From: Takakia lepidozioides
Taxonomy: Eukaryota; Plantae; Bryophyta
DNA: 64,000 bases
Assembly (NCBI GenBank): GCA_030704615.1
Contig: CM060731.1
Location: forward strand, 16,244,001-16,308,000
Direction of reading: 5' to 3'
Part shown: positions 30,501-64,000 of the stretch, in pieces
How positions within the stretch are numbered: position 1 is the first letter of the stretch
Layout of the letters: every line of letters starts with the position of its first letter
Notes under the pieces: generated by a model
What the model was told of the DNA's origin: nothing
Database searches by the model: none
The model's input: the letters and a program-made list of their open reading frames with translations, nothing else
Translations under genes and position numbers: made by a program

Positions 30501-30747
30501 AACCGGGCATGAGAACTACTCCGTTGTCTTGTATAAGTTTATGGACCCGAGTACTCCCTGCACTGCGGCCGTTCCCAGTGGCCGCTCTGATGGACACCAA
30601 ACTTCTGGCTCTCTCTGCAGTTCTCTTAAAAATACTCGCCCCTTGCAAAGCGGTCCCATTAAAGGAAGACGGAAACAAGGGCGCAGCTCTTCCAACATTC
30701 GACCCGGTACACGCCTCCAGTCCCCACACAGCTGGAGCAGCCGCCAT
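27598..30747 (-). CDS. Isocitrate lyase / PEP-mutase superfamily lyase (2,3-dimethylmalate lyase-like), plastid-targeted
   Basis: MPGCYDALSA, GFISGY, KPDFG, IIADADTGGGNALNV, EDQVWPKKCGHMRGK, ARTDAR, GADASFVEAP, NMLEGGVTP, spread over about 7 exons. Confidence 0.9.
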
Positions 30748-42449: not shown

Positions 42450-42655
42450 TCGGCTGGTAAGTGCACAGTGTGTTGCCCTTGTGGTTTGGGGTTCAAACCC
42501 GCTGCCCTTATCCCGTGTGTGGGATTGTTCGAGACGGTATGTCTTGACGTTGATCGTCATGTAGGTCTTATGGCCCATAAATGAAGGCGGGTGAATTTTC
42601 CCCCTCCTCAAGGGCTTGTGGGTCCTTTAAGAAAAGAAAAAAAAAAAAAAAAAAT
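42450..42655 (+). repeat. SINE-like insertion
   Basis: Pol III B-box-like GGTTCAAACCC at about 42490 and an A-rich tail at about 42630-42655. Confidence 0.4.
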
Positions 42656-42975
42656 CAAAAAGGGGCTTTTAGGGTTTACAAAAAGGTTAAAAAACTTAAA
42701 AAGTTGCCCATCATAGTAGCGTGAACAGACTTAGAGCGAGCGGGAGGGAGAGAGAGAGAGGGTTGGGACTTAGAGCGAGCGAGCGGGAGAGAGGGCAAAC
42801 ATGCATGGGAGGCCCGCAGTTGGATCAACCTTCGCATCTGGAGCAAGCAACCCTAGAAACGCTAGGGTATGTGTGCGAGGAGGTTTCGGCTAGGAGCCCG
42901 CCGTTCTTGGGAGAGTCAGCTTCATCTTAGCAGGCCGTGTTTCAATCTCTACCCGCTCGGCCCTGATTTTACAGC

Positions 42976-45650
42976 ACGGAGCAGAGCTGGCATGAGTTTC
43001 TAAAAGATCCTTCACGATGGTGGGACAACCGCAATCGCAAGGTGTGGCTTTTTCTTAATGTACGATGTGAAGAAGTTTGTCCATCCTGCAAATGTGGGTT
43101 GGCTCTCCTGTTAGTACCATGATTTGGTATTCTTCCTGATGTTTACAAGGTTCTTGGGAGAGTTAGCTTGGTCTTAGTAGGCCGTGTTTCAATCTCTGCC
43201 CACTCAGCTGCACCGTGGTGGTTCTCACTGACCAATCCGACATTACCTAACTACAGACACAAGCAGCACACACTAGAGGTCATCTTGGGTTCATGTTCAG
43301 TCAAAATCCTCCATGGGTCATGACACAAGGTCGAGGACAATGTGGTGAGGGCACCTTCTTCTTCGACCTATTTCAGCCTATTTTGCCCTCTCATCAGACT
43401 CGGCCCTGAATTTGAATCATGGAGCAGAGCTGGCATGAGTTTTTTTTAAGATCCTTCACGAGGGTGCGACCGCAATCGCAATGTGTGGTTTTTTTTTAAT
43501 GTACGATGTGCAGAATTTTGTCCATCCTGCAAATGTGGGTTGTTGGCTCCTGTTAGTACCATGATTTGATATTCTTCCTGATGTTTACAAGGTTCTTGGG
43601 AGAGTCAGCTTGGTCTTAGCAGACCGTGTTTCAAAGTCTGCCTGCTCAGCTGCACCGTGGTGCAGGTTCTCATTGACCAATCCGACATTACCTGACTACA
43701 GACACAAGCATCACACACAAGGTCAAATCCTCCATGGGTCATGACACAAGGTCAAGGACAGTGTGGTGAGGGCACCTTCTTCTTCGACCTATTTCAGCAT
43801 GTTTTGCCCTCCCATCAGACGCCCTGAGATGCATATTGAATTTTGTAAGTTAGCTCATTGCTCGTTGATAAGTAGGGTTGGGGGTGTTTGCTGGAACAAT
43901 TCTAGACTGTCATTGTCAGCTGCTAGCAGGAAGGCAAGGATGTATGCATAGATAGCTGAAGGATTTTGTGCAGAGGCATAGATAGCTGAAGGAGCAGGGA
44001 TAGAGTGTGGGCCCAAATTCGACCAAGAGGGCCGGATTTCAAGCTCCATTATTTCAGTGTCATCCATTCAGCCAGGGATTTCCTGGTGACATTGCCAAGG
44101 CTTTACTCGCAACACGATGCTTGTAAAGCTTCCTTAGCTTGAATGTTGATTATGCTTGAATTATTAGGTTTGTAAAGCCAGTTTTGAAATTTTCATGGTA
44201 ATCAGCTCTCTTGAAAATCTGTAGGTTGCAAGCCATTTACAGCGGGCCGTGGGTGGACTGGAAGACAGCCATTGAAAGTCCTGGTGCAAGTTAATACTAG
44301 TGGAGAGCAGAATAAGCTTCATATGCCCTTTTGGTGCTAGTTATCTTCATGTATGGTACTGTTGAACACCAACAATCTTTTGGTGAGATTCTGTCTTGGT
44401 GCACATGTCTGATAAAAAAAGACGGTAATGTTTGTTCTGAAACCTGAAGGCGTGAAATGATTCAACACAACAAGAGCATTACGCGTGTCACAGTACAAGC
44501 TGTAAGAAAGCAAGAGATACATAGTTATACAGTCAAACAGACAACTATCAGTTTCTGTGGAATCTCTTGCCAATGGCAGGATGGGTTGGGAATAGCCAAG
44601 TCAGGAGGTGAATGCCTGTCAAATTACCACATGTCCTTTTGAACACTGCCCCTGCCCTGGTGGACATGTACGCCAATTGTGGGTGCATTGAGGATGCAAA
44701 GGGAGTGTTCAACACTGTGGCTGAACGAGATGTGGTGTCGTGGAGTGCGATGCTTGCTGGGTATGCACAGCTGGGGTGCGGGATGGAGGCTCCAACCTTT
44801 GAGAAAATGATGGGGGAAGGGGTGAAGGCCGCCGACATAACGTTTGTGTGCGTTTGCAGTGCGTCTGCAGCCCTGGAAAAGGGCAAAGAGATCCCTGGTG
44901 ACATCATCAAATCTGCAATTGTACCAGATGTCATCCTGAACATGGCTCTGGTGGCCATGTATGCTAAATGTGGGAGCATTGAGGATGCCAAGGGAGTGTT
45001 CAACACTATGGCTGAACTAGATGTGGTGTCGTGGAATGCGATGCTTGTGCAGAGCAGGAGCGCGGGATGGGGCTTTGGACACCTGAAAGCAAATGATGGA
45101 GAAAAGGATGAAGGTACCTTCTTCAACATATTTCACCCTGTTTTCCCTGCTAGTGTTTGCTTTGACAATTCTAGGCTGTCATTGTCAGCTGCTAGCAGCA
45201 AGGCGAGGATGTATGCATGATTTGTGCAGAGGCATGGATAGCTGAAGGAGCAGGGATTTCGTGTGGGTCCAGATTCATCCAAGAAGGCCAGATTTCAAGC
45301 ACAAGATTACCTGTGATTCCCTGTGGATCAATAGCTACAAGAAACCTGCATGGGTAGATGGTCAACTGGGAGCAGCGGCACAAGTGATAAAATCAGGCAC
45401 TGCTAATGAAGGCATCTTCTTCAACACATTTCACCCTGTTTTTCCCTCTTATCAGAATCGGCCCTAAATTTACATGTTTAATTCTGCAAGTTAGCTGGTT
45501 GAGTGAATCTAGTTTGGAGTGACTTTGACATGATACTGCCAATGTGACAACAGGAAAGTGTCAAAAATAGGTAACAAAGATGAGGAGAAGTTGTGGAATG
45601 AATACTTATCTGAGCCCAGTCACTGATGGGTCAACCGGGGCAGAAAGGTG
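42976..45650 (+). pseudogene. Captured fragments of an OSB-type PDF-motif gene plus PLS-PPR repeats
   Basis: SWHEFLKDPSRWWDNRNRK|GT (42976-43041, degenerate copy near 43420-43480), AG|IHPRRPDFKHKITCDSLWI (45273-45330), KLWNEYLSEPSH*WVNRGRK|GT (about 45580-45647). PPR repeats at about 44650-45050. Confidence 0.7.
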
Positions 45651-47609
45651 AATGCCTGCTACATTTCAGAGAGTAGCAGACTCAATTCAGCATAGGAACT
45701 AGTGTGCTACGCTGAGTTGGGTGTTTCCTAGAACAAATGTAGGCTGTCATTGTCAGCTGCTAGCAGCAAGGCAATGATGAATGCTTGATTTGTGCAGAGG
45801 CATGGATAGCTGAAGGAATAGAGATAGAGTGTGGGTGACGCAGGGTGCTGGGCAATGGGCAAGATGTCTTTGTATAAACGTGAGTGACCTTCCTATCATC
45901 CTGGGTTTTATTTTTAGTGCATGTTTCTTTGTGAAGTATCTGACGACTTCGCCAATACACACCAACCTTTTTGCTTTGGTTTGTTTAGGACATGGGATAG
46001 AAGTTACCATAAACAACACTGGCATTGGTTTTTCATATATGGTATTAGATAATTCTCTTAATTGTTTCCGCCTTGGCAGGTTGCTCAGTGACCTTCCCTG
46101 GACGCTTTGGAGTATAGCGAGTGAGTGTCTCACAATGCAATATTGGTTGGTGCATCTTATGCAAGAACTTGGAAAACAAACAAATGTCCTTGCTGTAGTA
46201 ATTCTTAAAGCCATGCAAGCCGTTTTTGATGGGTGGCAGATTGATGGAATACATGAGTAGTTAGAAGATTCTGGGTGAACACTTTTCAAAGTGTTATAGT
46301 TAGACAAAATAATTCACATGAGAACATGCGACTATTTAATGTATTTTTAGATCGCAACAAAAATGATAATGATAAATAGATTGGTAAATAGAGATGGTAT
46401 GCAATCTCTTGGTTTTGCTCAGCTTGTTGCAGTTATGTCTTGCTGCCTTGTTCTCTTTGTATTATATATTATATTTCCTTGTTGTAATAGACATGTACAT
46501 GACTGCTATCATAGTCATAATAATGACTACATCTATTTTCACTCTCCAATAGTACTACACCACGTGGCAGAAATACAAATATGTAAAAAAATAGCAATAC
46601 ACCCCAAAAAAACACCCATCATGACACATGTCAATCTGCTGATGGACCACGTGTAAAAACTGCAACGCGCCACGTGTTGCAACCGGATTAGCACACCCGT
46701 AGTCATAGTTCGCAGTCATGGAGAGCTAAACATTCTGCCACGTGTCATTTCCTGCATCGAGCACGTGTCACCCTTGCACAGCCGCTGACATGGACTACAC
46801 TGCCCGTTCAGTCATTCAGTAAAGCCAGCGTGTATGACTACCCCCACAGCTGCTCTGGCGCCACGTGACAGCCAGCCTGGAGAGTCATATCTGCCATGTC
46901 ACAACTGACTAGGTTTTTACGTCTGCAGAGACAGGAAGTCGTAAATGGCTTCCATGACTGCATTTGCAGTCATAACACAGAGACGTAAAAGCCGCAATTT
47001 GTTGTAGTGTACACATTACCTTCGCCGCCTCCTTCTTCATGCGTGGAGAATCTGCTTCTTCTAACTCTTTGGAGCAAATCCACCGGAATAAGCCTCCCAA
47101 TCTATAGATTGTCTCACGAACCTCGGGAGTCAATGTCCCATGTACTGCAATGGGCAAGATGTCTTGCAATAGATTGTGGTATTCATGAGACTTCAAACCA
47201 TGGACCCCGTCTTCTTCGCTGAACTTCGTACGGAGGGATGACCCATAACCAGTTGGTGTTCGGACAACACTTATGGTGGCTATCACTTTCTTGTATTCCT
47301 CCTTTGTCCATTGCCAAGGTGCGCGCCTATAATTGCACCGTACAACACCCTTTGGGTCCACACCATTTTGTTCGGCCCATAGATAGCGCATGCGACCCTG
47401 CTCCTCAAGCTCCTTTCTAACACCGAGAGGATCTCTTTTTACAGCCGCTCCCTTCTTTGCTGGCGTGCCATGAAGAACCCGAAAAAATGACGAGCAGACA
47501 TTCTTCTCAATATGCATTGGAGCCATCTCAGGCCAATGTCCTCTCCCCAAGAGTCACAATGTGCAGCTACTGCAGAAGGAAGAAGCTTGGATAAGATTGC
47601 CACTGTTTT

Positions 47610-49388
47610 TTACCAGTTCACCTTAAGACCAAAGGCAGTGCAGAAGGAATCAAGCGCATCCAGAGCAGAGGCAACATTGGAGGAGGAGGAATTGTCAATG
47701 AGTAACGTCGTATCATCAACATAGAGAGAAGATTTGATAGAGGAGGGAGGTGGAAGAGAGCAGAGGATTTTAAGCCCTTGAAAAGTTGGGTTGCTGTCAA
47801 GGAGATGACTTAAAGCGTCAGCAGCAAACAAGAAAAGGAAAAGAGAGAGCGGACAACCTTGACGAACTGATCTAAAGAGCGGGAAGGAGGTAGAGAGGGC
47901 ACCGTTAAGAACCACCTTACTCGAGGCAGAGGAGAGAAGAATAGGAACCCAAGATAGGAAGTTCCCCTCGATACCGGAGTTGCGCAGAGCACCAAACAAA
48001 AAAGGCCAGTCAACATTGTCAAAAGCCTTTTCAAAATCCAACATAAGCAAAGCCAAGGGGCTGGTTGGACTCCTGTGCAGAGAAGAGAGCCTCGTTTGCC
48101 AGTAACACATATTTGTCCAAAATCATTCGGTTCTTCATAAAGCCAAACTGCTCTAGGCAAATTAATTTGTGAAGAAGAGGCTGCAGACGTAAGGCCAGCG
48201 CTTTTGCTATAATCTTATAGGAGGAATTCAAAAGCGTGATCGGCCGGTAATTGGTGATGCAATCTCTGTCACCTTTTTTAAAAATCAAGGTGATGACTCC
48301 TTGAGATATTTGAGAATGCATTATCCCTTTCTCAAGGATATCATTTGTCATATTGAGAAGGTCATCCCCCACAGTCCCCCATAATACTTTGAAGAACTCA
48401 ACCGGTAATCCGTCTAAGCCCGACGATTTATTGGAGCTAAGAGCTTCAATAGCCAATAAGAGCTCCATGTTCGTGAAGGGGGCATTTAGACTCAAAAGAT
48501 CATCCGGAGACAGAACTTTCGGGACACATGCCAGGACTTTACTCTTATGCAACCTAATATCTGGGGAATCTACTCTCTTCCCAAAAAGGCAGATAGATGT
48601 AGCAGCCTGCCTCTGTTTGACTTTCTGAAAAAAGTAAGCCGTCATTTTTTCCCCCTTCAATGACCAATTTACCCCGGCTTTCCTTTTAAGGTTGAGCTCC
48701 TTCTGGCTACGCAGCTCAGCAAGGTTCATTTTTGCGGTATTGAAGGACTCAAAAGTGACAGGACCCACTTCACCATTCTCAATTAACCATTGGCAATGCG
48801 AGATGCATTTGATGAGAGCTCTTTCCCTCTCAGCTCTACTTAAAGCAAGGGCCTTTGAGAGGGATTGAGCCGCTTTCCTAGCAGCATAAATCTTTTCAAG
48901 AAACTTGACCGTAGGAGAAGAGGCGGAGACCCCTGCTTCTTTCCACACTGAGGCAAGGTTCAAAACCATGGCGGGGATAGAGAGCAGAGAGGGGTTTAAC
49001 TTAAAAAAAACTACGACCCTTAGCATGAAGCCCAAGAGGCCTGAATTCAGCTGAGATTAGCGCGTGATCAAAATCAGGGAGGATGGGAGGAAGAGGTACA
49101 GGCTTGGCCCATGCTGCAGAGATGGGAGAATAGAAAATCCTATCGAGCCTAGCCATGCAAAGATCAGAAGCATCACGGTTATTGGTCCAAGTATATCTGA
49201 GAGCCCTCTGCTCTAAAACAAAAATATCAGATAGACCAACTAAAAAACATAGCCTGTCCCAAGCAGCAAGCTCATCACCAGAGATAGAATGAGAAGATGA
49301 CACACGACGGTCACTAGAAGACTCTACCATATTAAAATCCCCAGTAAGAAGTGGATACTAGCGGACATTGAAGGATCTTAGAGTGGAG
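47610..49388 (-). mobile_element. LINE ORF2 (APE endonuclease C-terminal half plus reverse transcriptase), disrupted
   Basis: LTGDFNMVE, YTWTN...ARLDRI, KSSGLDGLPVEFFK, NYRPITLLNSSYKIIAK, LDFEKAFDNVDW, VRQGCPLS, YVDDTT, GLKVNW. Confidence 0.92.
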
Positions 49389-50130
49389 CAGTGTAGGTAA
49401 TGCTGCTCGTGGTTGACCCACCTTGTTGACCACTGCCAAAGGCAAACGGTCATCGTGTCTCACACGCTGAGACTGCCTCCTTGTGTCCAGAATGCTATCC
49501 ACTGTGAGATGTGCTGGCCGCTACACCCCATCAAATGCACGCTTGAGCAGTGCGGGTGGCATCAAGTTAGTCCACCATAGCCGTGGACGATGAGCCCGTG
49601 ACCCTACTGTAGCTGCATCTAAGAACACTGCTGACCCAAGCCACGACCGGACTTGATGCACACTGGCCATCATCTTGGCCCGAGAATCGCCCATCAGTGA
49701 CACATTCTCCAAGATGTATGCTAGAGATACAGCTTGATGAAGCTGCAAGTGGCGCAAAACCCGCACCATCTCCCAAAACAGACCCGACCTCGAGTCTCGC
49801 AATCCATTGCCATGCCCGGCTGATGAATGCCCTTGGCAGGGCCAACCTGCCACTACCAAATCAATGGAGCCAACCCACTCCAAATCTTGCGCCCCCAGCA
49901 ACGAAATGTCTGCTGGCAAGGCCTGCTGATATTCACGAACTGCAGCCACCAGCAAAAACTCAGGGTACCGCTGCACCAACTGAGCAACATGACGAAGTGA
50001 AACGCGTTGTGCAGTCTCATCCCTCTCCACATACAGGTAACGCCGAACTCGTACACCTGCCTGTAACACAGCAGTCAATCTGGTGCTAATCCCGCCAAAC
50101 AAGTCCATAAGACAAATGCCTTCATCCGGA
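49386..50130 (-). pseudogene. C5 cytosine methyltransferase domain (DNMT3-like), N-terminal part, motifs I-VIII
   Basis: LMDLFGGI (I), YVERD (II), VAGWPCQG (IV, catalytic Cys), YILENV (VI), RAHRPRLWWTN (VIII). One in-frame TAG at 49521, after which the frame continues to RAALPTLL. Confidence 0.92.
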
Positions 50131-50516
50131 TACTGCCACATAATAGGTGTGGTGTCCAATGGAGACAATTGAGGTGGTCCTGGTGCAATCCCCACACTCT
50201 CCTCCTCTCCTGATGGTACAAAAGCCTCCACCCAGGCTTGTTGTACCCGTCGATCAGCAACCCGCTGCAAATCCTTGCTCGTGCCCCACAATGGAGTCTA
50301 AGCAACCATGGCAGGCAACTCCGCCATATCATACATATCATCCTGTTCTCCTGGATGTATGTCATCCTCTGAATGAGCGTTTCCCTCAAGCAACTCTCCA
50401 GGCCAAGTCACTGCAGCTGTGAATGCTGCTAGTGTCGGCATCTTGCCTCGCTGGGCAACCGCAACTCCTCCTATAAACGTCACAGGGAGCTACACATGCC
50501 GGCCCTCCCTTGACTG

Positions 50517-50909
50517 TCATCCAGGCCTATAGGAAGCCGACTCCTCCCAAAAATCCAGGGTGAAGCCTATGGGGTACAACATTGCCCCACCAACCAGGAC
50601 ATCGTACGAGACCGCATCTGTCATAATGGCCTTGGCTCGCATCACTGAACCATCTGTAGGGTGATCCGGCCGTAGTCTGATAGCCAACTCACGCCGTGTC
50701 ATGCCCCGAGCCTGCTCCGATCCTCCCAGAGACGTGTGTATCTGGAAAGAACAAGGCTCCATATCCGCCTCCGTGAGGCCTAAGCCTGCAATAGCAGCTC
50801 TGCCCAGCATCAATGGCTGAGCTCCTGAGTCCAACAAGACCCGCAGTGGCCAGTACCTCTTGCCTGCCGGTCCACTCAAACAAAAAATGTCATCCTGGTT
50901 GTCTAACAT
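50517..50909 (-). pseudogene. Retropepsin aspartic protease domain
   Basis: VLLDSGAQP and YDVLVG, lying between gag and the MTase. Confidence 0.8.
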
Positions 50910-51247
50910 GACAACTCAAGGTGTCACCATGGCGCGCTCAATGGCTGGCCTAGCTGACAGCTCCATCAACCTGGCAGCTGCAACTTGTCATGGCGCTGTC
51001 GTGGCAGTCTTTGACCCTCAAATCCCGAGGATCCCTCCGGCACTACACCTCCCACTATCTCCGCAGAAGATGAAGTAACCTCCCCACTCTCACAGAGTGT
51101 AGCTGCCAGCCTGAACACCTCAGCTGATCTTACCCCCGGCGTCGCAATCATGGTAGCCGAGAACAATGGAGCCTAACACACAGATATGGCCGCTCCCAGC
51201 AGCACACTAGCTGCCGTAGCCTTGGCAACACTAGGTAGTGGTGCTAC

Positions 51248-53032
51248 CTATGTAGCTCTCCCCAATGGTGTAGTAACCTCCGCCTCGGTAACAGTCAGGC
51301 GAGAACTAGGTGCCATGGATGGCGTCGACATTGTCTCCGCCAATGTGAATGACTGAGGGAGCCTAGCCTGACGGCTTGCCTCCTCACGCTGTGGATCCAA
51401 CTCCACCTCTGCACCTCGTGGCTCACAAACTCGTGTTGCTCCTCGAGTCACGGCTGCAGCAGACTCCACCTGCACTAGTGGTAGTGTTGCTCCGCACATG
51501 AATCCCATGTCTCCCATATCTCCTCCCTCAGGAACAGGAGGTGGACCATCTGGCCTTGGAGCCGGTACCACCTGAGCTGTAGCCATGGCAGCGAGCCTCT
51601 GCTCTAGCTGCTGAAGCCGGTTGGCCATGCCTTGGTCAACACCCTGACCTCCGCGTCCTTGGCCATGTTGAGCTTGCCCTTGGCCTACACCCCGTGCCTG
51701 GCCACCTCGTACTCTTTGGGCTGCTCCCCTTTGCCCCCGGCCACCATTGTTCCCTTAAAATTGGCCTGGGCGCAACTCGGGATGCAAACCATAACACTGG
51801 GCCTCTCCATGCCCGTGCTTGCCACAATGCCCACAGTGCAACTGTGCAGGCTGTGCATGTGCCGGCCCTTTGCCTCCCTCTGGACAATCCTTCTTGACGT
51901 GGGGTCCTCCACATGTCCAATACACCACATCCGCCCATTGTTGGCCTGCAAATGAAGGGAGAGACCTCTGCATCTGAGGTCCTCTCTGCCCTTCTCTGAG
52001 CTTCACCTGAGCCCCCTTGTTGCCTTGAGCATGTTGAGGTAGTGGTTGGCTAGGAGCACCACTACCCAGTGGTGTCTCCTTAGAAAATCCCACCATGACC
52101 ACTCGTTCCTCCACCATGTTGAGCTCTATCCGCTCTGCCAGCAAAAACACATTTGCTAAGGTTGGTTGGGCCGCTTGTAGGAGAGTTGCATCCCGCACCC
52201 TTCCTCAGCTCCTTGTCCAATATCCCATACCAGAATTGGACTGCCTGAGCTTCCGTGACCCCTTGGGTTACATTTATCAAGCGCCTCATGTGAGAGAAAG
52301 CCTCCCTCAAGCTCTCAGTAGGCTTCCGTTGGAACTTTTGCAAGCTCCGCAACTTCTCTGTCCTCACCCCTTGGTAGTTCCTCTCAACTCTTCGAAGAAC
52401 TCCACAACAGGGTTGAAGGCAGGCACGGGTACTGGTGCTGGTGCGGTAGTGGCTTGGGTGGACGTCGTAGCTACGGTACCACCAGTCCTACTAGTCCCAC
52501 TGTTACTTGCTGAAGCTGCCGGTGCAGCGGCAGGTGTAGCCACTGCCCTCGTGACTCTGGTGCCCCTAATGATGGAGACATAGTCGGGTGACCAGTACAT
52601 CCTCCACTCCTCAATCTCAACCTCATGCCCCCGCCTGAACTCATGGTAATCATCCATAGGCGGCCCCTCAAGGTGCTGAAACAGCCCCTTCCATGCCATG
52701 AAAGGCGTAAATAGTTGTGGATTGCGCATTTGCTGCAAATCACACCAACTATCAAACTTTTGGATAAAATCATCCAACTCGATGGTGCCCACCGCCCCAG
52801 AGTACCTTCGTGGCCCCTTGGTAGCTCCATACATCTCCTCCATTGTGTCCCACAACAATGGCAAAGAAACAACTTGCACCGCCGGTATGAGTCCTCTTGA
52901 TTCACAATCCGAATCAGGATCTTCCGTAGAAGACACGGGAGGTGAAAGTGGCCTAAACCGCACACCTCGTCTCGTGTACCCACTAGTATCGCTAGTGCTC
53001 GAACTGGCACTGTCCTCCGTGTTGACACTCAA
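51248..53032 (-). pseudogene. Gag (capsid-like region plus two zinc knuckles), frameshifted
   Basis: FQRKPTESLREAFSHMRRL...QFWYGIL (retrotransposon gag-like). Knuckles (C/Y)WTCGGPHVKKDC and CGHCGKHGHGEAQC. Confidence 0.75.
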
Positions 53033-53699
53033 CCGGTCATGAACATGTCCCTAACCCCCTCTCCATAAGGTAACCGGGTAGAGAACCTGTTGCGGCTTAT
53101 GGTTTGGAATACTAAGTTCCTAACATAGCCTACACCTGTACCTGCATCCACCGCAAGCACTCCTATGGTTGGCTGGTCATCACCTCCAACCTCACCACAG
53201 GAGAAACAATGATGGTCTGACTGGTCATCACCCCAGCCTCACCATCGACAGCATGCTCTAGGACTGGCCGGTGATCAAATCCAGACCAATCACCTATAAA
53301 AAACAAGCGCCCACACAAAACTAGCATGGCGCACAGTCAAGCATGCAGGTATGGAGGGGATCCAAACACAAGAAATCAGAACGACAACTCCCCCACACCA
53401 AAAACAATTCCACGGTGTTGCTCCTGCAAGGACACCCCAGCCCAAACCCGGACTGACTCTTGCCTCCACCTACGGAAAGGTCTTGGCCTAATGAGAGGGT
53501 GGAAACTACAAGGAATAGCTAAAGCAATGCCTAACCCTAGCATGCCCTCATCCCAACACTCTTCCTCTCCTCTCTTCCCTCACTTGCATGACCATGGGAA
53601 TATCATGAAGATACTCCTCAAACCGCCCTCCACGAGCTTCAAAATTCGGCCTTCAAGACCACATGCTAGTCCTTAGGCAGTCCACCAGTGCCTCCACAA

Positions 53700-54440
53700 G
53701 TCAGCACAGGCCGTCCACAGGTCAACACGGGCCACCACAGACCAGCACAGGCCCACACAGCTCACTGGTCACAGCCGTCACAGCCCCACACAGGCCACAA
53801 CCTATCACAGCCCTACACAGGTCACAGGGTCACAGCCCCACAGGCCGCAGCCTGTCACAGCCTATCACAACCCATCACAACCCCAAAGGCCACAGGCACA
53901 GCCTGTCACAGCCCCTCATAGCCCCATAGGCCACAGGGCACAACCTGTCCTAGCCTGCCATAGCCTGTCACAGCCCCTCACAGCCCCTCACAGCCCCACA
54001 GGCCACATGGCACAGCCTGTCACAGCCCTAACACAGGTCACAAGGGGTCACAGCCCCAAAGGCCACAGCCCCTCACAGCCCATCACAACGTGTCACAGCC
54101 CGTCAGAGCCCCACAGACCACAGCCTGTCACAGCCCGCCACAGCCCATCACAGCCCCTCATAGTCTGTCACAACCCGTCACAACCCCACAGGCCACAGGG
54201 CACAGCCTGTCACAGCCCCTCATAGCCCGTCACAACCCCACAGGCCACAGGGCACAGTCTGTCACAACCCCTCACAGCCCGTCACAGCCCCACAGGCCAC
54301 TGGGCACAGCCTGTCACAACCCCTCATAGCCCGTCACAGCCCCACAGGCCACATGGCACAGCCCGCCACAGCCCGCCACAGCCCCACAGGCCACAGGGCA
54401 CAGCCTGTCACAGCCCATCACAGCCCCACAGGCCACTCAT
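53700..54440. repeat. CACAGCC-based minisatellite in the retrotransposon 5' leader
   Basis: Dozens of CACAGCCC / GTCACAGCC / CACAGGC variants. Confidence 0.9.
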
Positions 54441-55605
54441 GACAATTTAGTCATTTCTCCAAGGGGTTTAGCCACGCCAAGCTAGGGTTTGTGTCTCTTG
54501 GACTCTAGGCTTTGCACCGAGCTATGGCGGCTGTGAAGAAATCAGCAAGGTATTCTTGCTCTTTCGGCTCCCACACACCACTAATAGTAGCCCTAAGCCA
54601 TGAGGAAGATGGTTGCCACAAATCAAGCCTTCTTTCTCACTTAGACTCCCCAAACATGCCACTAAACTCAATGGCAAACAACCAAGCCTTGCTGGTTTCC
54701 AGCCCTTGTGAGCACTCATTCAAGCGTTTTCCTTGGCCATAGCATCTGTCTTAGAGCCTATTCCAGCCCCCTACACCTGCCACTTCAAGAACCATGCTCT
54801 ATCTAGGCTTGAGGTTGAAACCCCAACTCAGAACACGCTCTACAAGTGTCGGACTGTCACATAAGAGCAGATCAGCCCCTTCCTTCCTTTCTTGCACTCC
54901 CAAACCTGAAAGTACAAGCCTTCAACAGGCTGAAAGCATGCTCCACACATGCATTGCTCTCACATAAGGGAAGTCAGCCCTTCCCTCTTCCTTGCTTGCC
55001 CTCCAAGCTTGAAGATGGAAGCTTCAATGAGCTGAATATATGCTCCACACATACAACCTCTTCACACAAGAGGTATCAGCCCCCTATCTTGGCTCCTTAA
55101 CTCCTTGATGCTCTTTAAGACAAGACTAAGCACTCCACAGCCCTTGCCAAGCTCCTGAAACCCTAAGGCTTACATTTCCAGCCACAAGACACTCATCTTG
55201 TGGTGCAAGAGCTTTTCTTCCAAGCTCTGAAACCCTAGGTGCACATTCTATGGCCTTGCCGCACCTCTTAGCTCCTGTTCCAGCCCTGCTCTTGCCATGA
55301 CAAGAGCCCTCTCAATGCTGAAGCTTGAGATTGAAACCCAATCTCAACATACTCCACAAAGTGCACTGATTTGCCCCAAGCCAAATCAGCCCTTTCGCTT
55401 GGTCTTGCAATCCTGCAGCATGGTGCTTTCATCTCTGAAGCTGAAGATCGAATGCCAAGGTCTACCACCTCATAACCCACATTGCCTCCGCTTCTAACAA
55501 CTAAGAGCTCCACGGTGCTCCTTGCATAACAACCTGGTTTCTCTCATTCTCAAGCAAAAACCACAAGTGCTACAACTAACTCGTATCTGGCACTCACAGA
55601 TACGA

Positions 55606-55620
55606 GCTCATCTTTCTCGA
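55606..55620 (-). promoter_or_regulatory. Putative self-priming primer-binding site
   Basis: TCGAGAAAGATGAGC, 1 nt after the A1 repeat end, is the exact complement of 15 nt inside the repeat (55788-55802). No tRNA-type TGG start. Confidence 0.7.
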
Positions 55621-55621
55621 A

Positions 55622-55951
55622 TGATAAAAAAGAAGAATACAAGCACAAGCTCATGCGAGCTCACAAAGCTGAAGCATAAACTCATGCATATATAAACTCA
55701 TCACTCAAATACAAGTCAAGTCAAGTGCACCCCACGCCATGGGGAATCCACACTACGGCGCCATAGCTAGGCGCGGTGAGGCTCAACTCGAGAAAGATGA
55801 GCCCACCGCGATCTGCCGTGAAGATAAACAACGCCAGGTGCCCAAACATGTATTGGCCCCTGGACGGACACTTGGGTCAATCCCAAATGTCAATATATAA
55901 AAGCTAGTTATTTCCTACATAACTTCACACTAGTGGTAAAATAACTTGACA
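55622..55951 (-). repeat. Terminal repeat A1 (TGTCAAG...TTATCA, 330 bp)
   Basis: Near-identical reverse complement of 60777-61105. Confidence 0.95.
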
Positions 55952-55955
55952 AAGT

Positions 55956-56840
55956 ACATGACAACGAATCATAAGCCAAGCAATTTGTAGATGTCATTCA
56001 CCCCAAATAGCACACCAGAAGACCAGCCAGATTAAGGTGTCGTTGACGACACCTTAATCTGGCACATTCGGGGAAAATAATAATAATAATAATATTTTAT
56101 TATTATTATTTTGAAAACTTGCAAATGAACCCAGCCCTTGCTTTGCAACAAAAGTCCTAGCGTTTACCCAGCATGGATTTTTGGTCACCTGGAAGAAGGA
56201 CATAACAACGAATCGTAAGCAGAGTAATTTGTAGATGCCATTCACCCCAAATAGCACAACAAAAGACCAGCCAGATTAAGGTGTCGTTGACCACACCTTA
56301 ATCTGGCACATTCGGGGAAAATAAAATAATAATAAAATATTAAATTTTTATTTTTATTTTTATTTTTTGAAAACTTGCAAATGAACCCATCCCTTGCTTT
56401 GCAACAAAAGACCTGGCATTTACCCAGCATGGATTTTTGGTCACCTGGAAGAAGGACATGACAACGAATCATAAGCCGAGTAATTTGTAGATGCCATTCA
56501 TCCCAAATAGCACACCAAAAGACCAGCCAGATTAAGGTGTCGTCAACGACACCTTATTCTGGCACATTCGGGGAAAAATTAAAAATTAAAAATATTTATT
56601 ATTTATTATTTATTATTATTTACTATTTATTATTATTATTTTTGGAAAACTTGCAAATGAACCCAACCCCTGCTTTGCAAGCAAAAGACCTGGCATTTAC
56701 CCAGCATGGATTTCTGGTCACATGAAAGAAGGACATGATAGTGAATCATAAGTTATATGGTCCGAGCAATCTGTAGATGTCATTACCCCAAATAGCACAC
56801 CCGAAGACCAGCCAGATTAAGGTGGCGTTGATGACACCTC
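55956..56840 (+). repeat. Tandem array of about 250-280-bp units, each with a hairpin; a further unit lies inverted at 61306-61500
   Basis: About 3.5 units containing GCCAGATTAAGGTGTCGT-TG-ACGACACCTTAATCTGGC (perfect in the first unit) and a variable AT-rich tract. Confidence 0.9.
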
Positions 56841-57551
56841 CGACTCCAGTAGCAGTGGATATTCTTCGTCGGAATGAATCGGCTGTTTTCAAACGATTTA
56901 TATTAAAGCACCAAATGGCCTCTCCACCTTCTTTGCAATTGGGTGTCAACATCTCTCTCGACTTAGGATACTGGATGAAAGGACAACCACAACCCTCTGT
57001 AGTTGACAGAGGTTCACTCTGGAGCTCGGGGGATTTGGCAACCACTACTCAAAAATGCTTTTTAATTTTGCATTCAATCACAAACTACATTCATCCATGT
57101 GCCATTTGTCCAACATACATTCATCGCCCATTCATCCATTATTCATCCGTCATTCATCCATAATGTTGAATTGGTATGCATGTTATACTTGACACTACCC
57201 GCAGTAATAGGTCCTCTAAGCCGAATAGGTGTCCGCGGTTATAGGTGAGCACATCCAAAAGCGTGAGCAGAATTCTGCTGACGGAATTTTCTTCTCACGG
57301 ATTCTGCTCACGGTTTAGCGATCCCCTCTCCCCAGTATTGATAAGAATTCATCTTCCCTAAATGTTTGTTATTCTCACTCTGGCCCTGGTTCGGTGCCAA
57401 TTTGGATTGTGGAAACACCGGAAGTTCCTGCTCCTATAGGATTCAAGTGGATCTCTTCTCCGCTCCCTCATGATCCCCGAATGAAGTTCGATATTTCTCT
57501 TTTACAGCCATCAATTCGTGCTATCAACAGGGGCTTGCTTGATATTCCTCC

Positions 57552-57958
57552 ATGAGTTGGTGCATGTCCTCTTGGAACATTAGTGGCATAGGCTCTGATG
57601 CCTCTACGCCCAAGCGTCGAAGACCTCAGCATTGGGCTTCCTCTCTTATTTCTGCTAATGTTAGTTTGTTTTTGCAAGAACATAAATTAGACTATAGGAA
57701 GATTAGTGCTCTTGGTCACTCACTTTGGCCTCTCTCCTCATCTTGGTGGAACCCTACAATTGTGGATACAAGGGGGTACTGCTATTCTGATTTCCCCATC
57801 TACCTCCCATCTATATGCCTCTTGTTTCCTCAAAGTCGAAACCTGGATGCCAGGAAGGGTTCAATGTGCATTTACTACCTCTTCCTCTATCTTTGGCTCT
57901 TGTGCTTTCATAGATGTCTACGCGCCTAATTCTGTGCAAGAACGCATTGAGCTTACTC
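57552..57958 (+). mobile_element. LINE ORF2 start (APE endonuclease N-terminal half)
   Basis: SWNISG, LFLQEHK, GGTAILIS, DVYAPNS..ERIEL. Continues at 49388 on the minus strand. Confidence 0.8.
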
Positions 57959-58306
57959 AGCTTCCCAGGATCGCATGCTTTCCGGGATTGTGGACCTGGC
58001 CTCCTGTGGGATGCTCAGTTGCAGCAGTTAGTGGAGCCTAATGCTGACAAGCGTGAGCGGGCAATGGGTTTTACCACTGGTACCACGGCGGTGCCGTCTC
58101 TTTCTGAGGCAGCACGTCGTCAGGTGTTGGGGCAAGCAATGGATCTCAATTGCTTGACCTGCATTATCAGCTTGGCTATGGCTGAGCAACGCAGAGTGTG
58201 GAGTGCACTTCCCTCGCTGGTCTCTCTGCCTACCGAGACGGTACATGCAGTGAGTGGGGGCGAGCATGTGAGGACCACGGGGTGTAGGCATCCATGGCAC
58301 ACGTGA
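57956..58306 (+). pseudogene. C5 methyltransferase C-terminal part (motifs IX-X)
   Basis: LSFPGSHAFRD...EPNADKRERAMGFTTGTT...RRQVLGQAMD. Confidence 0.8.
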
Positions 58307-58599
58307 GAGGTGCTCAAGGTTCAGAGGGAGTTGGCAGCCAAGGTGGCGGTGATGGATGAGGCTGGGGATTTTTCTCAGGTTGAGGAAGTCCTCGAGGATG
58401 AGATGATGGGGCAAGATGAGGCCTTGTCATTGACTGAGCATGTAGGGAGTACTGCTCAAGAGGTTACAACATAGCAACCACCCATAGATTAAGGGATCAA
58501 GTATAGGCGAGGTAGATGGGGGCATCCAGAAGCTGGTGGGAGGATGCGTCCTCTACCTCTAAGCCCACTGGACTTAAGGTTGTAGTTACGGAGGACAAT

Positions 58600-58835
58600 T
58601 GGGAGCCTGACATTGGACCCATTGTCACCGGAGGAGAGAGACGACATATACGGCGGTTCCTGAGGGCTTACATGAATTATTTTGCCTTCAGTTTGAAGAA
58701 CTTGGGAGCACTGAAGGGTCAAGAGATCCATATTGAGTTGGCCACTGACACGCCAATCTTTCGGAGACCCTATAGATACAGTGACATGGAGAGGTCTTTG
58801 ATTCAGATGAGGACTCAAGATCTCTGGGAGGTCAG
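58600..58835 (+). pseudogene. Start of Gypsy reverse transcriptase; remainder of RT and RNaseH absent
   Basis: FAFSLKNLG...HIELATDTPIFRRPYRYS..ER. No YxDD motif follows before the integrase. Confidence 0.7.
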
Positions 58836-59049
58836 GTTGGACCTACAACAGAGATTACTGTAGACGGAGTGTCTGAGGACCCTGAGGCTAGTGATGAGCC
58901 AGGTGGTACCAGAGATATACATGAGGATTCGGCTGTCTTGGACTACCTCCGTACTGAAGACATGGCAGCCACTGTGACTGCCAAGGAGAGGGATCGGATC
59001 CTGCAACGAGCCAAGAGGTTCAAGTGGGAGGGGATACACCTACTTTGAG

Positions 59050-60352
59050 TGTAGGAGGATGATCGGGTGAGGATTGTGCCTCACCCCACACAGCGTGCAC
59101 GGTTAGTGCGGCATGCCCATGAGGAGTTGGGGCATTTTGGAGTGCGACGCACTCACAGTTTACTGCAGGGGGCAGTATTGGTGGTGTGGTATGCATACAG
59201 AGGTGCAACAGTTCGTGGCTAGGTGCATGGTGTGTGACAAGGTGCGTGCTTCATTCAACGCCCCTACACCACAGTTGCATCATTTATCAATCATGGGATT
59301 GGGCTACAGGTAGAGTCTTGACTTCGCAGGACCGTTGCCACTGACTATGCGCCACCACAGATATGTGTTAGTGATGGTGGAGCACTTCTCCAAGTGGATT
59401 GAGTTGGTTCCATTGCCTGACAAGGCTAGTGAGGGGGCTGCGTATGCATTCTTGGATCGTGTGCTTAGCCGATTTGGTGCTCCAGCTGAGGTACTCACGG
59501 ACCAAGGGAGAGAGTTCTTGGGGGCTTTGTGTGATAAAACCTTGATAGACCACCACACCACTTCTCGGGATCATCCTGAGGCCGATGGCTTGGCATAGAG
59601 AGTTGTTCAGATGGTGAAGAGGGGTTTGCGCAAGTATAACTTGCAGAAGGGACACCTAGGAGATTGGGATCTTCAGGTTCTTTGGTTAGCCATGGGCTAC
59701 AGGTTCAGCAAACAAGCATCACTTGCCTCCTTCTCACCATATTTCCTTCTCTTTGGCCGAGAGCCAGATTTGCCTGCAGCCATTCGTAGGGACACTGCTC
59801 AAGTCCTTAACCTTGACGATCCGGATGTGTGGGTACGTGCATGTGATCAGCGTGCAGAGTTGTTCAAGAAAGTCATGCCCATGGCTTTTGAGAACCTTGC
59901 CATTGCACAGCACCGTGATACGTTGAGGTATGTCACTATACGTGGTGGAGGATATCGTCCTGGGGTTCGGAGGTCTTAGCCCTGGTGACTATGTTTATTT
60001 GCAGCAGACTGCTCCTACGACTCTGGATGTTACTGCAGGGCGTGTTATTCTGAGGGTTCGAGAGGTGTTGCCCTCAGGGGTCCTGATCTTGGAGGGTCGG
60101 GATGGCATGACTTGGAAGGACCATGTGCGTAATTGTGTGCCATGTCACCTTCTCAATGTCGATGGTAGAGTTGACCCAAACTTGGCAGTGGTACCTGCAG
60201 GTTTGAGGTGCATGCTCTGTGGGTCTGCCAAAGGGGCAGCCACCATGCTGGTGTGTGATCGATGCTCAAGGGGTTGGCATATGGGATGTTTGACTCCACC
60301 TCTTGATAAGGTTCCTGACGGAGATTGGTTGTGTCCACACTGCTTGGGATAG
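59050..60352 (+). pseudogene. DDE integrase (H2C2 plus rve core) with a C-terminal PHD finger, frameshifted
   Basis: AHEELGHFG...CMVC, LDFAGP, VEHFSKW, LTDQGREF, HPEADGLA*R, SPYFLLFGR. PHD CMLC...MLVCDRCSRGWHMGCLTPPLDKVPDGDWLCPHC. Confidence 0.92.
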
Positions 60353-60612
60353 TGGCAGTGGATATGACTAGTGGCAGCTCACAAGACCTGGGAGGCCAAG
60401 CTCATAGGAGTCAATACCCAAGATCTCAGGCTCAAGTTCACAGGTTGCAAGACGACGACTAACGGTGGGGCAACTCTTGTACCCGGCCTCTTGATCTATT
60501 GAGTTTGAGTATAGTAGGGACAGTGGTGGAGGACTTAGTGAGGCTATGGCCACTATCACATCTTGTGGCTACCTAGACTTAGAGGGATCTAAGCGCCAGC
60601 TAGGGGGGCGAT

Positions 60613-61301
60613 TGTGATGGACTAGTGGCTGCACTAGTGGTGACTAGTGGTTGTCTAGTGGCAGCCTAATGGTGCACTAGTGGTGCACTAGTGATAGACT
60701 AGTGTTTGGTGTGCACATATGTTGTGTGGTTTGGACAACGATGTAGTTGTGTAGCGATATGTATGCGCACGACAGCTGTCAAGTTATTTTACCACTAGTG
60801 TGAAGTTAGCTAGGAAATAACTAGCTTTTATATATTGACATTTGGGATTGACCCAAGTGTCAATCCAGGGGCCAATACATGTTTGGGCACCTGACGTTGT
60901 TATCTTCATGGCAGATCGCGGTGGGCTCATCTTTCTCGAGTTGAGCCTCACCGCGCCTAGCTATGGCGCCGTAGTGTGGATTTCCCATGGCGTGGGGTGC
61001 ACTTGGCTTGACTTGTATTTGAGTGATGAGTTTATATATGCATGAGTTTATGCTTCAGCTTTGTGAGCTCGCATGAGCTTGTGCTTGTATTCTTCTTCTT
61101 TATCATTGTGATGGACTAGTGGCTGCACTAGTGGTGGCTAGTGGCAGCCTAGTGGTGGACTAGTGGCTGCACTAGTGGTGACCAGTGGCAGCCTAGTGGT
61201 GCACTAGTGGTGCACTAGTGATAGACTAGTGTTTGGTATGCACATACGTTGTATGGTTTGGACAGCGATGTAGTTGTGTAGCGATATATATGCGCACGAC
61301 A
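60613..61301 (+). repeat. 3' terminal repeats B1 (60613-60774), A2 (60777-61105), B2 (61107-61301), preceded by a polypurine tract (60602-60610)
   Basis: B = TGTGATGG...GCACGACA, containing ACTAGTGG repeats. A2 matches A1. PPT AGGGGGGCG. TSD ACTT at 61302-61305. Confidence 0.92.
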
Positions 61302-62244
61302 ACTTATTCCAGGTGACCAGAAATCCATGCTAGGTAAACGCCAGGTCTTTTGCTTGCAAAGCAGAAGTTGGGTTCATTTGCAAGTTTTTCAAAGAATAAA
61401 AAAACAAAAAATAATATTTTTATTATATTTTGTTTTTTCTTCTCTGAATGTGCCCGATGAAGGTGGCGTTGACGCCAGCTTAATCCGGCTGGTCTTCTGG
61501 GCCAGAATATTTAAGCTTCCGCCAAATTAAAATACACTTATTTAAACTCAACAACACATGGATCCCTGCGCACATGTTGTTGCAGTCATCCATGGTTCAC
61601 TCATCTGGGCAATTTTTCATCCGACACTCATCCAACATTCATCCAATGTTTATCCATTCCCTTTTACGTTCATCATAGATACATTCATCCGACAGTTTTT
61701 CATCGCACATTTGGGCCACATTGTCGTCATGGAGTTTGTCTGTCTTCGCTCCGATGGAAAGAAGATTGCGCCGTTGTAGTGGAGTTTGTGTCCACGGCAA
61801 TAGGCCCACTTGTTCCCTCGCTTTTAGCATCAATAATCTGCTCATGCTTACAATCTGCTCACACTTGGGGGAATCTGCTCACGGGTTCTGCTCATACCTT
61901 TGCTGCCCTCGAGAAGAGAGGGCATGGAAGAGATGGAACCCCTATGAATTCTGCAATTGTAGATAGGGCAGAAGAAGTCGGTGAGTGCCTGGGGAAGGCC
62001 ATGGACGGAAGATCGAAGGAAAGAGGATCAGAGCTGTCATCAGCTAGGACCGAGCATGAAGGCGCACCATATTCAGAAAAGTAGATGAACATGGGGATAG
62101 AAAGGTGCTCAGGGCTCACCACTGGTGGAAAGAGAGAGCTAGGTCCATAGGGGCTAGAGAAACTAACGGAGAGGCCTCTGCCGCTGCTGGTATAACTTGC
62201 AGATCTTCGTTGGAGTGGGATTTCTCGAGCTTTCGGGAGTACTT

Positions 62245-63954
62245 CTACGAAGACATCATTGCCTCGATCAGCTTCATCCCAGCCGCGTATGTGGCCACCA
62301 TATAATGACGCCCTTTTTTGGTTCCCACATTTGGCAGAATGTTGTCTCCAGACAGCCAGGGGAGAACAGAGAGACATGTGTCATCCTTATTGACATATGT
62401 TAGCCTCATGATAAGTAAAACTTGAACAAAGAAGAGATTGCTATTGGGGGAAGAATGATACAGGCGAGACCCGAAAAAGATAGAGGTATCAGAGGAGAGC
62501 TGCAAGTATGGGAGGAAGGAAGAAAAAATGACCCTGACTTTGGAAAGAACTAACTCAAGTTCCTTTCCTAGGGTCAGAGAGAGAACATCTTGCTTGGTAA
62601 TCCAAGCATTGGAGAATTTGTTGTCTCCAGTGAGAAGGATAGATGGGGAGCCTTCAGGAAAGCCAAAAATAATAGGGACAATATTAATAGCAACAGAGCG
62701 AGCACCAACAAGGTGGACTGCATCATCAAGAGAAACATCCACAAAAGATCGTAGTTGAAGACAGAAGGAGGCAAGGCTTTGCGGGCCTTCCGGGGGAGAT
62801 AGAGGGAAAACCGCGGGAATATCCTCCGTAGAAGTAGGAAGATTGGAAGAAGATGGAGAGAGAAGGAACACCCTGGGACTGATCAGGGAGAGTGGAAGAG
62901 AGGAGGTATCACCGCGACTCCTTTTAGTAGGGGGAGGAAGCGGAGGAGAGACATCATTCCTTTTCCTGGAATTGTTTGGCTCCAGCATCTGCCAGGCCAC
63001 AGAAAGCAGAACATCCGGATTAGGCTCTACATAAATAGCATCTTGAGCAGCATTAGCATTACGTAAGACTGGACACTCAGATTTGACGTGCCCTTCTGCT
63101 TGACAGTGGTGACAAATAATAGCCAAGTTAACCTCCTTGACTAGAACATAAACAAATGAATTGTCCAAAGTTGGCAGCTTTAGCGAAGTGGCAATCGTTT
63201 TGGATTCCGGCATCATCACCACCAACTGTGGAACACCTCCATCCCTCACATATTCCAGAGCATTGATGTTGTTGTCCACACTCTGAACGTTCAATTCGAT
63301 CTGTTCAAAGACATTCATGGATCCGATGAATGCCCCAAAGTGGGCCCCGATTTCAGGTAGAGATCGCAAGTAGTTCCCAGGAAGGAAAGGGAGAGCCAGA
63401 ACTCTAGGCTTACAGGCCACACCACCCTTATGACCCCAATCAACTGACCATGGGAACACATGAACCCTGCATTTAGAACGCCTCACATTGAAGGAGAGGG
63501 CTCTAGCAGCAAATTCCTGAGAGCTAAACATGATAGAATAGAAGCCCCTCCCTAGAGCAAGACAAAAATGAGATGTGAGGCCTCCATCGGCACCAAAATG
63601 CTCAAAGAGCCCACTTTCTAGCTGCAAAAGCTCTATCTCTAATTCTGCCTGGAAAATAAATGAGAACCCCCCGCTCCGAGAGGAGCTGCGACTGGTCTTC
63701 AAAGATCGTCAAATGATCGTGTCCATATTGAGGTTTAGGATCGGCTGGTCATCATCAACAGGCCCAGCTTCCTCACTCCAGACAATGATCGGTCTGTTTG
63801 GAGAAGAAGGCTTCCGAGGTCCAGAGCCCAAGACTCCTGCCCCAGAGTTATTTGGGAGATTCCCGGGGACCCAGTTCCGAGATCGGGACTGCCGCCGCGC
63901 AACATTCTTGATACGGGCAGGTGGGGGAGCAGAGGGAGTTGTATGTACCGACAA
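62245..63954 (-). mobile_element. LINE ORF1-like gene (CCHC knuckle)
   Basis: CHHCQAEGHVKSECP. Paralogous to 38858-40222. Upstream of the ORF2 pieces once the inversion is undone. Confidence 0.7.
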
Positions 63955-64000
63955 TATGTTGGTAATAGCGAGGGAGAGAGAGAAGAAGCGTCTGTATAGT

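Follow-up and report, generated by a model that had tools for sequence, protein, structure and literature searches.

LTR retrotransposons of land plants are usually seen as targets of DNA methylation, not as its writers. Here, we ask whether a C5 DNA methyltransferase (DNMT) domain found in one decayed Gypsy copy belongs to the family of that copy or was captured once, and what such an enzyme may do for a retrotransposon. The copy lies in a window of 64,000 nucleotides (the whole stretch of DNA analyzed), whose host is a land plant, as first described, and probably a moss.

Structure of the element

The element is a Gypsy insertion with the order gag-PR-DNMT, a TAG stop codon, and then RT-RNaseH-integrase-PHD. 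Its earlier assignment to Gypsy was borne out by the order PR-RT-RNaseH-integrase (comparison with homologs and related loci) and by the rve integrase. The insertion is bracketed by an identical 4-bp target site duplication, ACTT in element orientation (5′ copy, 55952 to 55955, minus strand; 3′ copy, 61302 to 61305, plus strand), with both DNMT halves inside, and its two flanks, when joined, rebuild one unit of a neighboring 256-bp tandem repeat. The 5′ leader holds a degenerate 10-bp tandem array (53690 to 54450, minus), followed by gag with two CCHC-like knuckles (51056 to 53050, minus; tblastn with P0003 residues 1 to 565, 43%) and an aspartic protease with LLDSGA (50517 to 50915, minus; homolog P0029, E 1.3e-5; Pfam Asp_protease_2 at E 0.014, below the cut-off). 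Beyond the methyltransferase lie the start of RT (58582 to 58839, plus; homolog alignment), a DDE integrase (58875 to 59980, plus; Pfam rve, E 7.3e-11), and a PHD finger at the integrase C terminus (60209 to 60343, plus; Pfam PHD, E 1.5e-11).

The copy is decayed, as the preliminary description had stated: gag has 10 in-frame stops and then a frameshift, the N-terminal half of the methyltransferase has one in-frame stop, and the integrase has frameshifts and stops. The remaining RT and RNase H, about 1.3 kb, are deleted; a 2,173-nt contig of run X12 carries about 1,300 extra bases at the deletion point.

The two DNMT halves lie on opposite strands, a point absent from the first reading, because an 8.6-kb inversion (49386 to 57958, with CTC common to both breakpoints) cut one Gypsy insertion and a LINE. 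Marchantia protein P0003 maps with residues 586 to 1124 to 50987-49386 (minus) and with residues 1122 to 1240 to 57950-58303 (plus); therefore, the two halves are contiguous at the protein level. In runs X1, X2, and X5 (two studies), contigs diverge from the window at 57956 and then match, in reverse complement, the last part of the N-terminal half, in agreement with the earlier claim of an in-frame join. The same inversion divided the LINE into an N-terminal part of its endonuclease (57543 to 57955, plus) and a C-terminal part with the endonuclease end and RT (47610 to 49385, minus; Pfam Exo_endo_phos, E 5.6e-5; RVT_1, E 5.7e-17). The N-terminal part was recognized by eye from WNxxG, LQEH, and VYAP, which we take to be endonuclease motifs; alone, it had no Pfam, PDB, or related-locus match. 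No contig among those listed bridged the right breakpoint in inverted form. An assembly artefact is thus conceivable in strict terms, but the reciprocal LINE halves, the common CTC, and a sequence free of N favor a real inversion.

Methyltransferase domain and stop codon

The N-terminal half (49386 to 50120, minus) holds motifs I to VIII and part of the target-recognition region, with DLFGG, PCQ, ENV, and RPRLWW, and the C-terminal half (57956 to 58165, plus) holds motifs IX and X, with ERAMGF and LGQAM, so that all six motifs reported earlier are present. The domain matched Pfam PF00145 (E 3.5e-12) and was collinear with homologs over 316 of 317 codons, in keeping with the absence of introns noted before. 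Profile searches matched DNMT3A/B at 1e-17 to 1e-12 and DRM at 1e-6 to 1e-4, and in a structure model (pLDDT 93) the top Foldseek matches were all DNMT3A/3B/3C (TM about 0.7). By its nearest solved relatives and predicted fold, the domain is DNMT3-like, the class proposed at the outset. DRM identity was rejected: the motifs run I to X, and the circularly permuted order is absent. DNMT3A/3B and moss PpDNMT3 share the fold, linear motif order, and catalytic residues of the domain, which differs from them in having no PWWP, ADD, plant N-terminal domain, or introns and in its identity of about 21%. Moss DNMT3 itself is described as methylating CG and CHH sites de novo (PMC6453930).

The placement inside pol needs qualification. 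The domain does lie between protease and RT; however, it closes the Gag-PR-DNMT frame at a conserved in-frame TAG followed by CAA CCA (58472 to 58480, plus) and is not in the RT frame. Because a stop codon parts the two frames, "inside pol" is true only via readthrough. One TAG separates the frames in two loci with long open frames, and at the same place in further loci TAG or TAA followed by CAA was found in 32 of 33. Of 38 loci, only 6 show the strict readthrough context CAR YYA (PMC2754532) after the stop. In the largest family the sequence there is CAA CCC ATG, with which reinitiation is also possible. Since the TAG, in its readthrough-like context, precedes RT-RNaseH-integrase-PHD, the enzyme is likely made at the level of Gag.

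Distribution and selection

The domain is present family-wide: it is uninterrupted in sister contigs from the same organism and whole in 62 of the 65 informative metagenome loci that hold both halves (counted by eye). Named relatives occur in Sphagnum, Marchantia, Calypogeia, Riccia, and Klebsormidium, a distribution from Klebsormidium through mosses and liverworts. The main splits of DNMT and RT-RNaseH trees agree (no outgroup; one clade left out). In a sister group, RNase H precedes and integrase follows the DNMT, which is still part of the replication polyprotein. Summed contig depth was about four orders of magnitude higher for the element than for the adjoining LINE piece, pointing to a highly repeated family but giving no copy number.

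Between families, the median dN/dS of the domain was 0.24 (250 unsaturated of 278 pairs), and five unsaturated named pairs gave 0.11 to 0.22 (PR, 0.43; RT, 0.17; integrase, 0.12). The catalytic Cys was kept in 48 of 50 sequences and the Glu of ENV in 47 of 50. By these substitution rates, the domain is under purifying selection between families. Shared by sister copies, with catalytic residues kept and selection purifying, it is not a one-off capture, and neither of the two refuting outcomes set out in the first reading was borne out. A functionless captured host gene fragment, or chance nesting of two unrelated pieces in the window, is accordingly very improbable. Such a reading would suit the broken state of the window copy and of most metagenome copies, which carry stops, and a within-family dN/dS of 0.62, but it meets synonymous sites that are saturated between families while catalytic motifs are conserved, the spread of the domain from Klebsormidium to mosses and liverworts, and a single target duplication enclosing both halves; the sister copies, metagenome loci, and dN/dS already refute it.

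CpG depletion was uninformative as a mark of self-methylation: observed/expected ratios were 0.51 and 0.44 for the element, 0.45 to 0.57 for host genes in the window, and 0.48 for the LINE, so that the element is no more depleted than these. Elsewhere in the window, tblastx gave short matches that we took to be noise.

Terminal repeats and integration

The repeats of the element are laid out as A-coding-B-A-B, likewise in L024/L048, L049, and L051. Repeat A1, starting TGTCA (55623 to 55951, minus), and A2 (60777 to 61104, plus) differ at 10 of 329 columns. Next to A1 lies a primer-binding-like site (55606 to 55622, minus) complementary to positions 150 to 166 of repeat A, with 17 of 17 pairs (one G-U) and a perfect match of 14 nt that 0 of 2,000 shuffles reached; the pairing covaries in three families, and priming looks, on this complementarity, to be self-primed. 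A polypurine tract (PPT; 60598 to 60610, plus), also found in related loci, stands immediately 5′ of B1 (60611 to 60774, plus), which ends CACGACA. At the B1|A2 joint is a perfect 10-bp palindrome, GACAGCTGTC (60771 to 60780, plus), whose two arms are the two termini of the element. B2 (61105 to 61301, plus) is the 3′ terminus, and the A2|B2 joint brings a primer-defined end to a PPT-defined end. Target duplications were exact at 7 of 9 sites, with one mismatch at 2 of 9.

The layout and the ending of the element at its internal palindrome point to integration from circular or end-joined cDNA, a route long held to be a dead end for LTR elements. Because a pair of full LTRs is absent, LTR finders would miss such elements. 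If a circle can be cut at either palindrome, A-B-A-coding-B is expected too; of 20 distinct 5′ ends, 0 had this form. Copies of the form A-coding-B (L028, L033, L057, and L069) were considered as primary products and rejected: L028 and L046 have a common 3′ flank, yet one ends in B and the other in B-A-B, and recombination or assembly collapse can generate such copies.

The split repeats might instead have been copied through RNA, as in DIRS/PAT-like elements, or B might have moved in repair, with no end-joined circle and the methyltransferase unrelated. We consider this improbable. The uniformity of the A2|B2 joint within a family and the missing mirror form expected from free circle cutting would fit it, but the primer site that follows A1 and the PPT that precedes B1 imply reverse transcription of the ordinary LTR kind, which leaves B2 uncopied, and the joint is exactly that of the two predicted cDNA ends. 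The rve DDE integrase and 4-bp duplications, with no tyrosine recombinase match, likewise stand against it and led us to reject a DIRS order.

Possible roles of the enzyme

We lean, by a little, toward the following reading: the window holds a dead, inverted moss Gypsy copy from a family that keeps a selected DNMT3-like enzyme, probably to methylate its own cDNA in the particle before integration. Most ribosomes would terminate behind the methyltransferase, with occasional readthrough, so that the enzyme would be produced and packaged at the level of Gag, to be released by the protease. Self-primed reverse transcription would give B-A...B-A cDNA with joined ends, on which, as long-lived free DNA, the enzyme may write CG methylation before the integrase cuts the internal palindrome open to insert the copy. 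New copies would thus arrive marked, and the host would then maintain the marks. Judged from sequence, the likely use of the enzyme is methylation of the element's own new copies.

An active enzyme could instead have chromatin as its substrate, either where the element inserts or in other copies, guided by the PHD finger or free, in self-restraint or suppression of competitors. To this we give a minor share of belief. Production at Gag level may supply enough enzyme for action in trans, the integrase carries a PHD finger, and the host's moss DNMT3 methylates CG and CHH de novo (PMC6453930); against it, the Gag-PR-DNMT frame supplies the domain with no chromatin reader, and its place within the replication polyprotein of the sister group fits action on cDNA.

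A third possibility, which we regard as a long shot, is that the enzyme serves integration, methylating or binding the CpG beside the palindrome and so choosing which palindrome the integrase cuts. Three families whose repeats otherwise differ all retain the CpG in CACGACA beside the cut site, only one of two possible openings is seen (B at 0 of 20 distinct 5′ ends), and DNMT and split repeats co-occur here and, as described, in Klebsormidium. That co-occurrence, however, is a single lineage known from domain-bearing elements, and both palindromes are identical in sequence.

Extended beyond this family, cDNA methylation leads to a tentative proposal that we find rather doubtful as a whole: a widespread green-lineage clade with DDE integrases would integrate from end-joined cDNA at an internal palindrome, and its moss and liverwort members would pack a DNMT3-type enzyme at Gag level and arrive CG-premethylated.

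Related elements

The window family is a land-plant variant of KnitGypsy-Dnmt3 from the freshwater alga Klebsormidium, ranked so because an in-frame TAG parts DNMT from RT in the window family and its relatives. K. nitens protein P0041 aligns along the window element. As far as KnitGypsy-Dnmt3 is described in the accessible text, both have Gypsy domains, an intronless, unrearranged DNMT3-like domain upstream of RT, a DIRS-like repeat layout, and purifying selection on the DNMT. They differ in host (a land plant, probably a moss) and in the conserved stop before RT, since the algal DNMT is assigned to the Pol ORF, with P0041 as a single unbroken model; that text makes no mention of a PHD finger, self-priming site, palindrome, or 4-bp duplication. 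A single Klebsormidium domain assayed in yeast had no activity, a result its authors called inconclusive, whereas Symbiodinium retrotransposon DNMT3 domains methylate CG there (PMC5890265). SymbioDIRS-Dnmt3, with proven CG activity, is also reported as A-coding-B-A-B (PMC5890265), but DIRS elements use a tyrosine recombinase and the window family a DDE integrase.

EpiLTR/DAM-LTR elements carry DNA methyltransferases too, reportedly sister to DNMT4, at the 3′ end of pol, and with DAM and a chromodomain, unlike the window family (bioRxiv 10.64898/2026.05.21.726589). The Tcn1/Tf1-sushi chromoviruses of mosses are Gypsy elements with predicted self-priming, and a self-priming-like site occurs here as well; they have normal direct LTRs and a chromodomain in place of PHD finger, split repeats, and DNMT, and no methyltransferase or PHD was found in the accessible parts of their description (PMC6317226). 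Foamy virus integrase, also DDE, is described as cutting the palindrome of a 2-LTR circle internally to give processed ends, much as proposed here (PMC1180852; PMC2884000), but its palindrome is the end-to-end joint, whereas in the window family the palindrome is internal to the repeat unit and the inserted copy retains the end-to-end joint.

We found no paper on the element in mosses or liverworts, nor one explaining its repeats. In the text accessible, the term "streptophytes" is used in two later papers, with reference to the 2018 paper or without detail, and PMC11982613 and bioRxiv 2021.11.30.470311 held nothing specific on the element. The high-copy moss and liverwort family extends the question of the captured enzyme's role, raised in 2018, to Marchantia and mosses, for which methylation mutants are available. 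As a warning, many of the bryophyte gene models labeled "DNA methyltransferase" are parts of transposons.

The element in the window is real and belongs to a known kind, here with a land-plant host, a PHD-bearing integrase, permuted repeats and a methyltransferase that we infer to be a Gag-level product ahead of a leaky stop. Gypsy elements with DNMT3 have been described (PMC5890265), and the accessible part of that paper does not mention Marchantia. A literature search confined largely to open-access papers found neither an account of the element from mosses or liverworts nor anything that explains its repeats; two later papers speak of "streptophytes," a term that may or may not take in land plants.

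The window copy lies on two strands. Gag (53050-51056), protease (PR; 50915-50517) and the N-half of the C5 methyltransferase (50120-49386) are on the minus strand. The plus strand carries the C-half (57956-58165), a reverse transcriptase (RT) stub, integrase (IN) and a PHD finger (60209-60343). The six methyltransferase motifs of the preliminary description are present, but spread over both strands. The left piece aligns to a Marchantia homolog (P0003) as far as residue 1124; from residue 1122 onward, the homolog matches the right piece. As that description also held, the copy is decayed; stops in gag and PR-DNMT, frameshifts and the loss of ∼1.3 kb from the RT and RNase H region mark it as dead.

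Terminal repeats A1 (55951-55623, minus) and A2 (60777-61104, plus) show 10 differences over 329 columns, ACTT sits just outside A1 and again just past repeat B2, and the joined flanks rebuild one unit of a local 256-bp tandem repeat; the parts from A1 to B2 are one single insertion. A later inversion (49386-57958) broke the element within the methyltransferase and severed a LINE endonuclease, whose C-part sits left of 49386 and N-part (recognized by eye only) left of 57956; CTC is common to both breakpoints. Assembly error is an unlikely, though conceivable, source of the inversion. The tandem repeat, inside one unit of which the element inserted, occupies 55952-56840 and 61302-61500 and has a near-perfect 38-bp hairpin per unit.

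Contigs from three public runs (two studies) depart from the window at 57956 and then match the end of the N-half, so that sister copies in the same organism are uninterrupted and, against a doubt raised earlier, carry the domain unbroken. A metagenome scan gave 77 loci; 65 contain both methyltransferase halves, contiguous across the break in 62, and 38 have gag or PR before the methyltransferase and RT after it, always in that order (these three counts made by eye). Domain homologs were named in Marchantia polymorpha, M. paleacea, Calypogeia, Riccia, at least three Sphagnum species and Klebsormidium, and in no vascular plant among the matches listed (44; 120 of 281). A further close homolog (P0046) is labeled as coming from a cyanobacteria-related MAG; it probably belongs to a plant or alga whose contig was binned there. 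Clusters at an E value of 1e-30 or better numbered 385. Of the best 150 representative proteins, 79 had the domain downstream of RNase H and/or upstream of integrase, 17 had it downstream of protease or upstream of RT and 54 had it alone; motif IV read ECQ in 69 and PCQ in 43. Sixteen sampled proteins with the RNase H-methyltransferase-integrase (RH-MT-IN) order fell on one side of a starred branch.

In two metagenome loci (L063 and L061), a Gag-PR-DNMT frame and an RT-RNaseH-IN-PHD frame (1369 and 1047 codons in L063) adjoin at one TAG. Of 33 other loci, 32 have TAG or TAA and then CAA at the corresponding place, as does the window copy, in frame, at 58472; this stop parts the DNMT frame from the RT frame, correcting the placement of the methyltransferase "inside pol." The tobacco mosaic virus readthrough signal is given as UAG followed by CAR YYA in the portion of PMC2754532 consulted; the strict context occurs in 6/38 loci, spanning four families, and the largest family has CAA CCC ATG after the stop. 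This arrangement suggests that translation would yield the enzyme at Gag level and would depend on readthrough for RT and integrase.

A profile built from six methyltransferase domains matched DNMT3A/3B/3C best (1e-17 to 1e-12), ahead of DRM and bacterial enzymes, which scored 1e-6 or weaker, and all Foldseek matches listed for a structure model of the open L063 domain (pLDDT, 93) were DNMT3 structures. Domain coverage reached 85% in 63 of 78 sequences, and removal of near-duplicates left 50; the catalytic Cys is retained in 48/50, the ENV Glu in 47/50 and the motif VIII arginines in 39/50 and 40/50, the losses being of CpG-decay type. Median between-family dN/dS was 0.24 (250/278 pairs unsaturated), between those of RT (0.17) and PR (0.43), and the window gave 0.12 against locus L004 and 0.11 against L001; neutral drift with family-wide loss of catalytic residues, considered earlier, is thus not what was found. 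The within-family value (0.62) fits decaying copies, yet is also a caution. That the methyltransferase is a passenger seems very improbable. Domain and RT-RNase H trees, both without an outgroup, concur in their main splits and join the window element to those of Marchantia, Calypogeia and Sphagnum in a supported group.

The A-coding-B-A-B layout of the window element is implied by a legend for the Klebsormidium element KnitGypsy-Dnmt3 in the part of PMC5890265 available and recurs in L024/L048, L049 and L051; in L046 and L054 the ends read B-A-B. The termini are TGTCA and CGACA, and the B1/A2 joint is a palindrome, GACAGCTGTC, equal to both element ends plus two bases; the 4-bp target duplications are exact at 7/9 sites. 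Bases after A1 are complementary to a mid-A site (0/2000 shuffles equaled the match), and in three families each priming site pairs 16/16 with its own A and at ≤12 with those of other families, a pattern resembling Tf1-type self-priming as outlined in PMC6317226 (seen in part). A polypurine tract lies directly 5′ of B1. A DIRS-like origin of the repeats, independent of the enzyme, appears doubtful. Ordinary reverse transcription would yield B-A-coding-B-A cDNA, and the A2/B2 joint is exactly the right end of this predicted cDNA fused to its left end. The simplest reading is that the cDNA ends would be joined and integrase would open the internal palindrome, much as foamy virus integrase can at circle joints (PMC1180852, in the section consulted). 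The mirror product of a freely cut circle was seen at 0/20 distinct 5′ ends, which counts against free cutting. A role of the enzyme in choosing the palindrome is a doubtful proposal. Single-B copies are uninformative on integration, since one such site is also seen with B-A-B.

For function, we lean toward a putative enzyme that would be packaged and act on element cDNA, so that new copies would arrive already marked. The PHD finger seems without the aromatic-cage Trp of H3K4me3 readers, and thus may read unmethylated H3K4, like the ADD domain of animal DNMT3. Action of the enzyme on chromatin or on other copies is a less likely role, though not a negligible one. For methylation of packaged cDNA, as for any methyltransferase activity, CpG depletion of the element gives no direct support, as it resembles that of host genes; the domain from Klebsormidium showed no activity in yeast, according to the available part of PMC5890265.

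Elsewhere in the window, a CACTA-type DNA transposon (41989-47009) is bounded by 30-bp terminal inverted repeats that begin CACTAC and is flanked by TAC on either side; it has an interior of PPR-gene fragments and repeats, and transposase-like remains at 46909-47553. LINE ORF1-like remains with a zinc knuckle occur twice, on opposite strands (38934-40581 and 62000-64000). Host genes at 7073-10172, 24134-25586 and 27598-30783 comprise a cation/H+ antiporter and two genes whose motifs suggest a patatin-type lipase and a member of the isocitrate-lyase family. The antiporter is closest to moss proteins, which makes a moss the probable host: its nearest named single-domain matches are from Ceratodon (83%) and Sphagnum (82%), followed by a lycophyte (78%) and a liverwort (75%).
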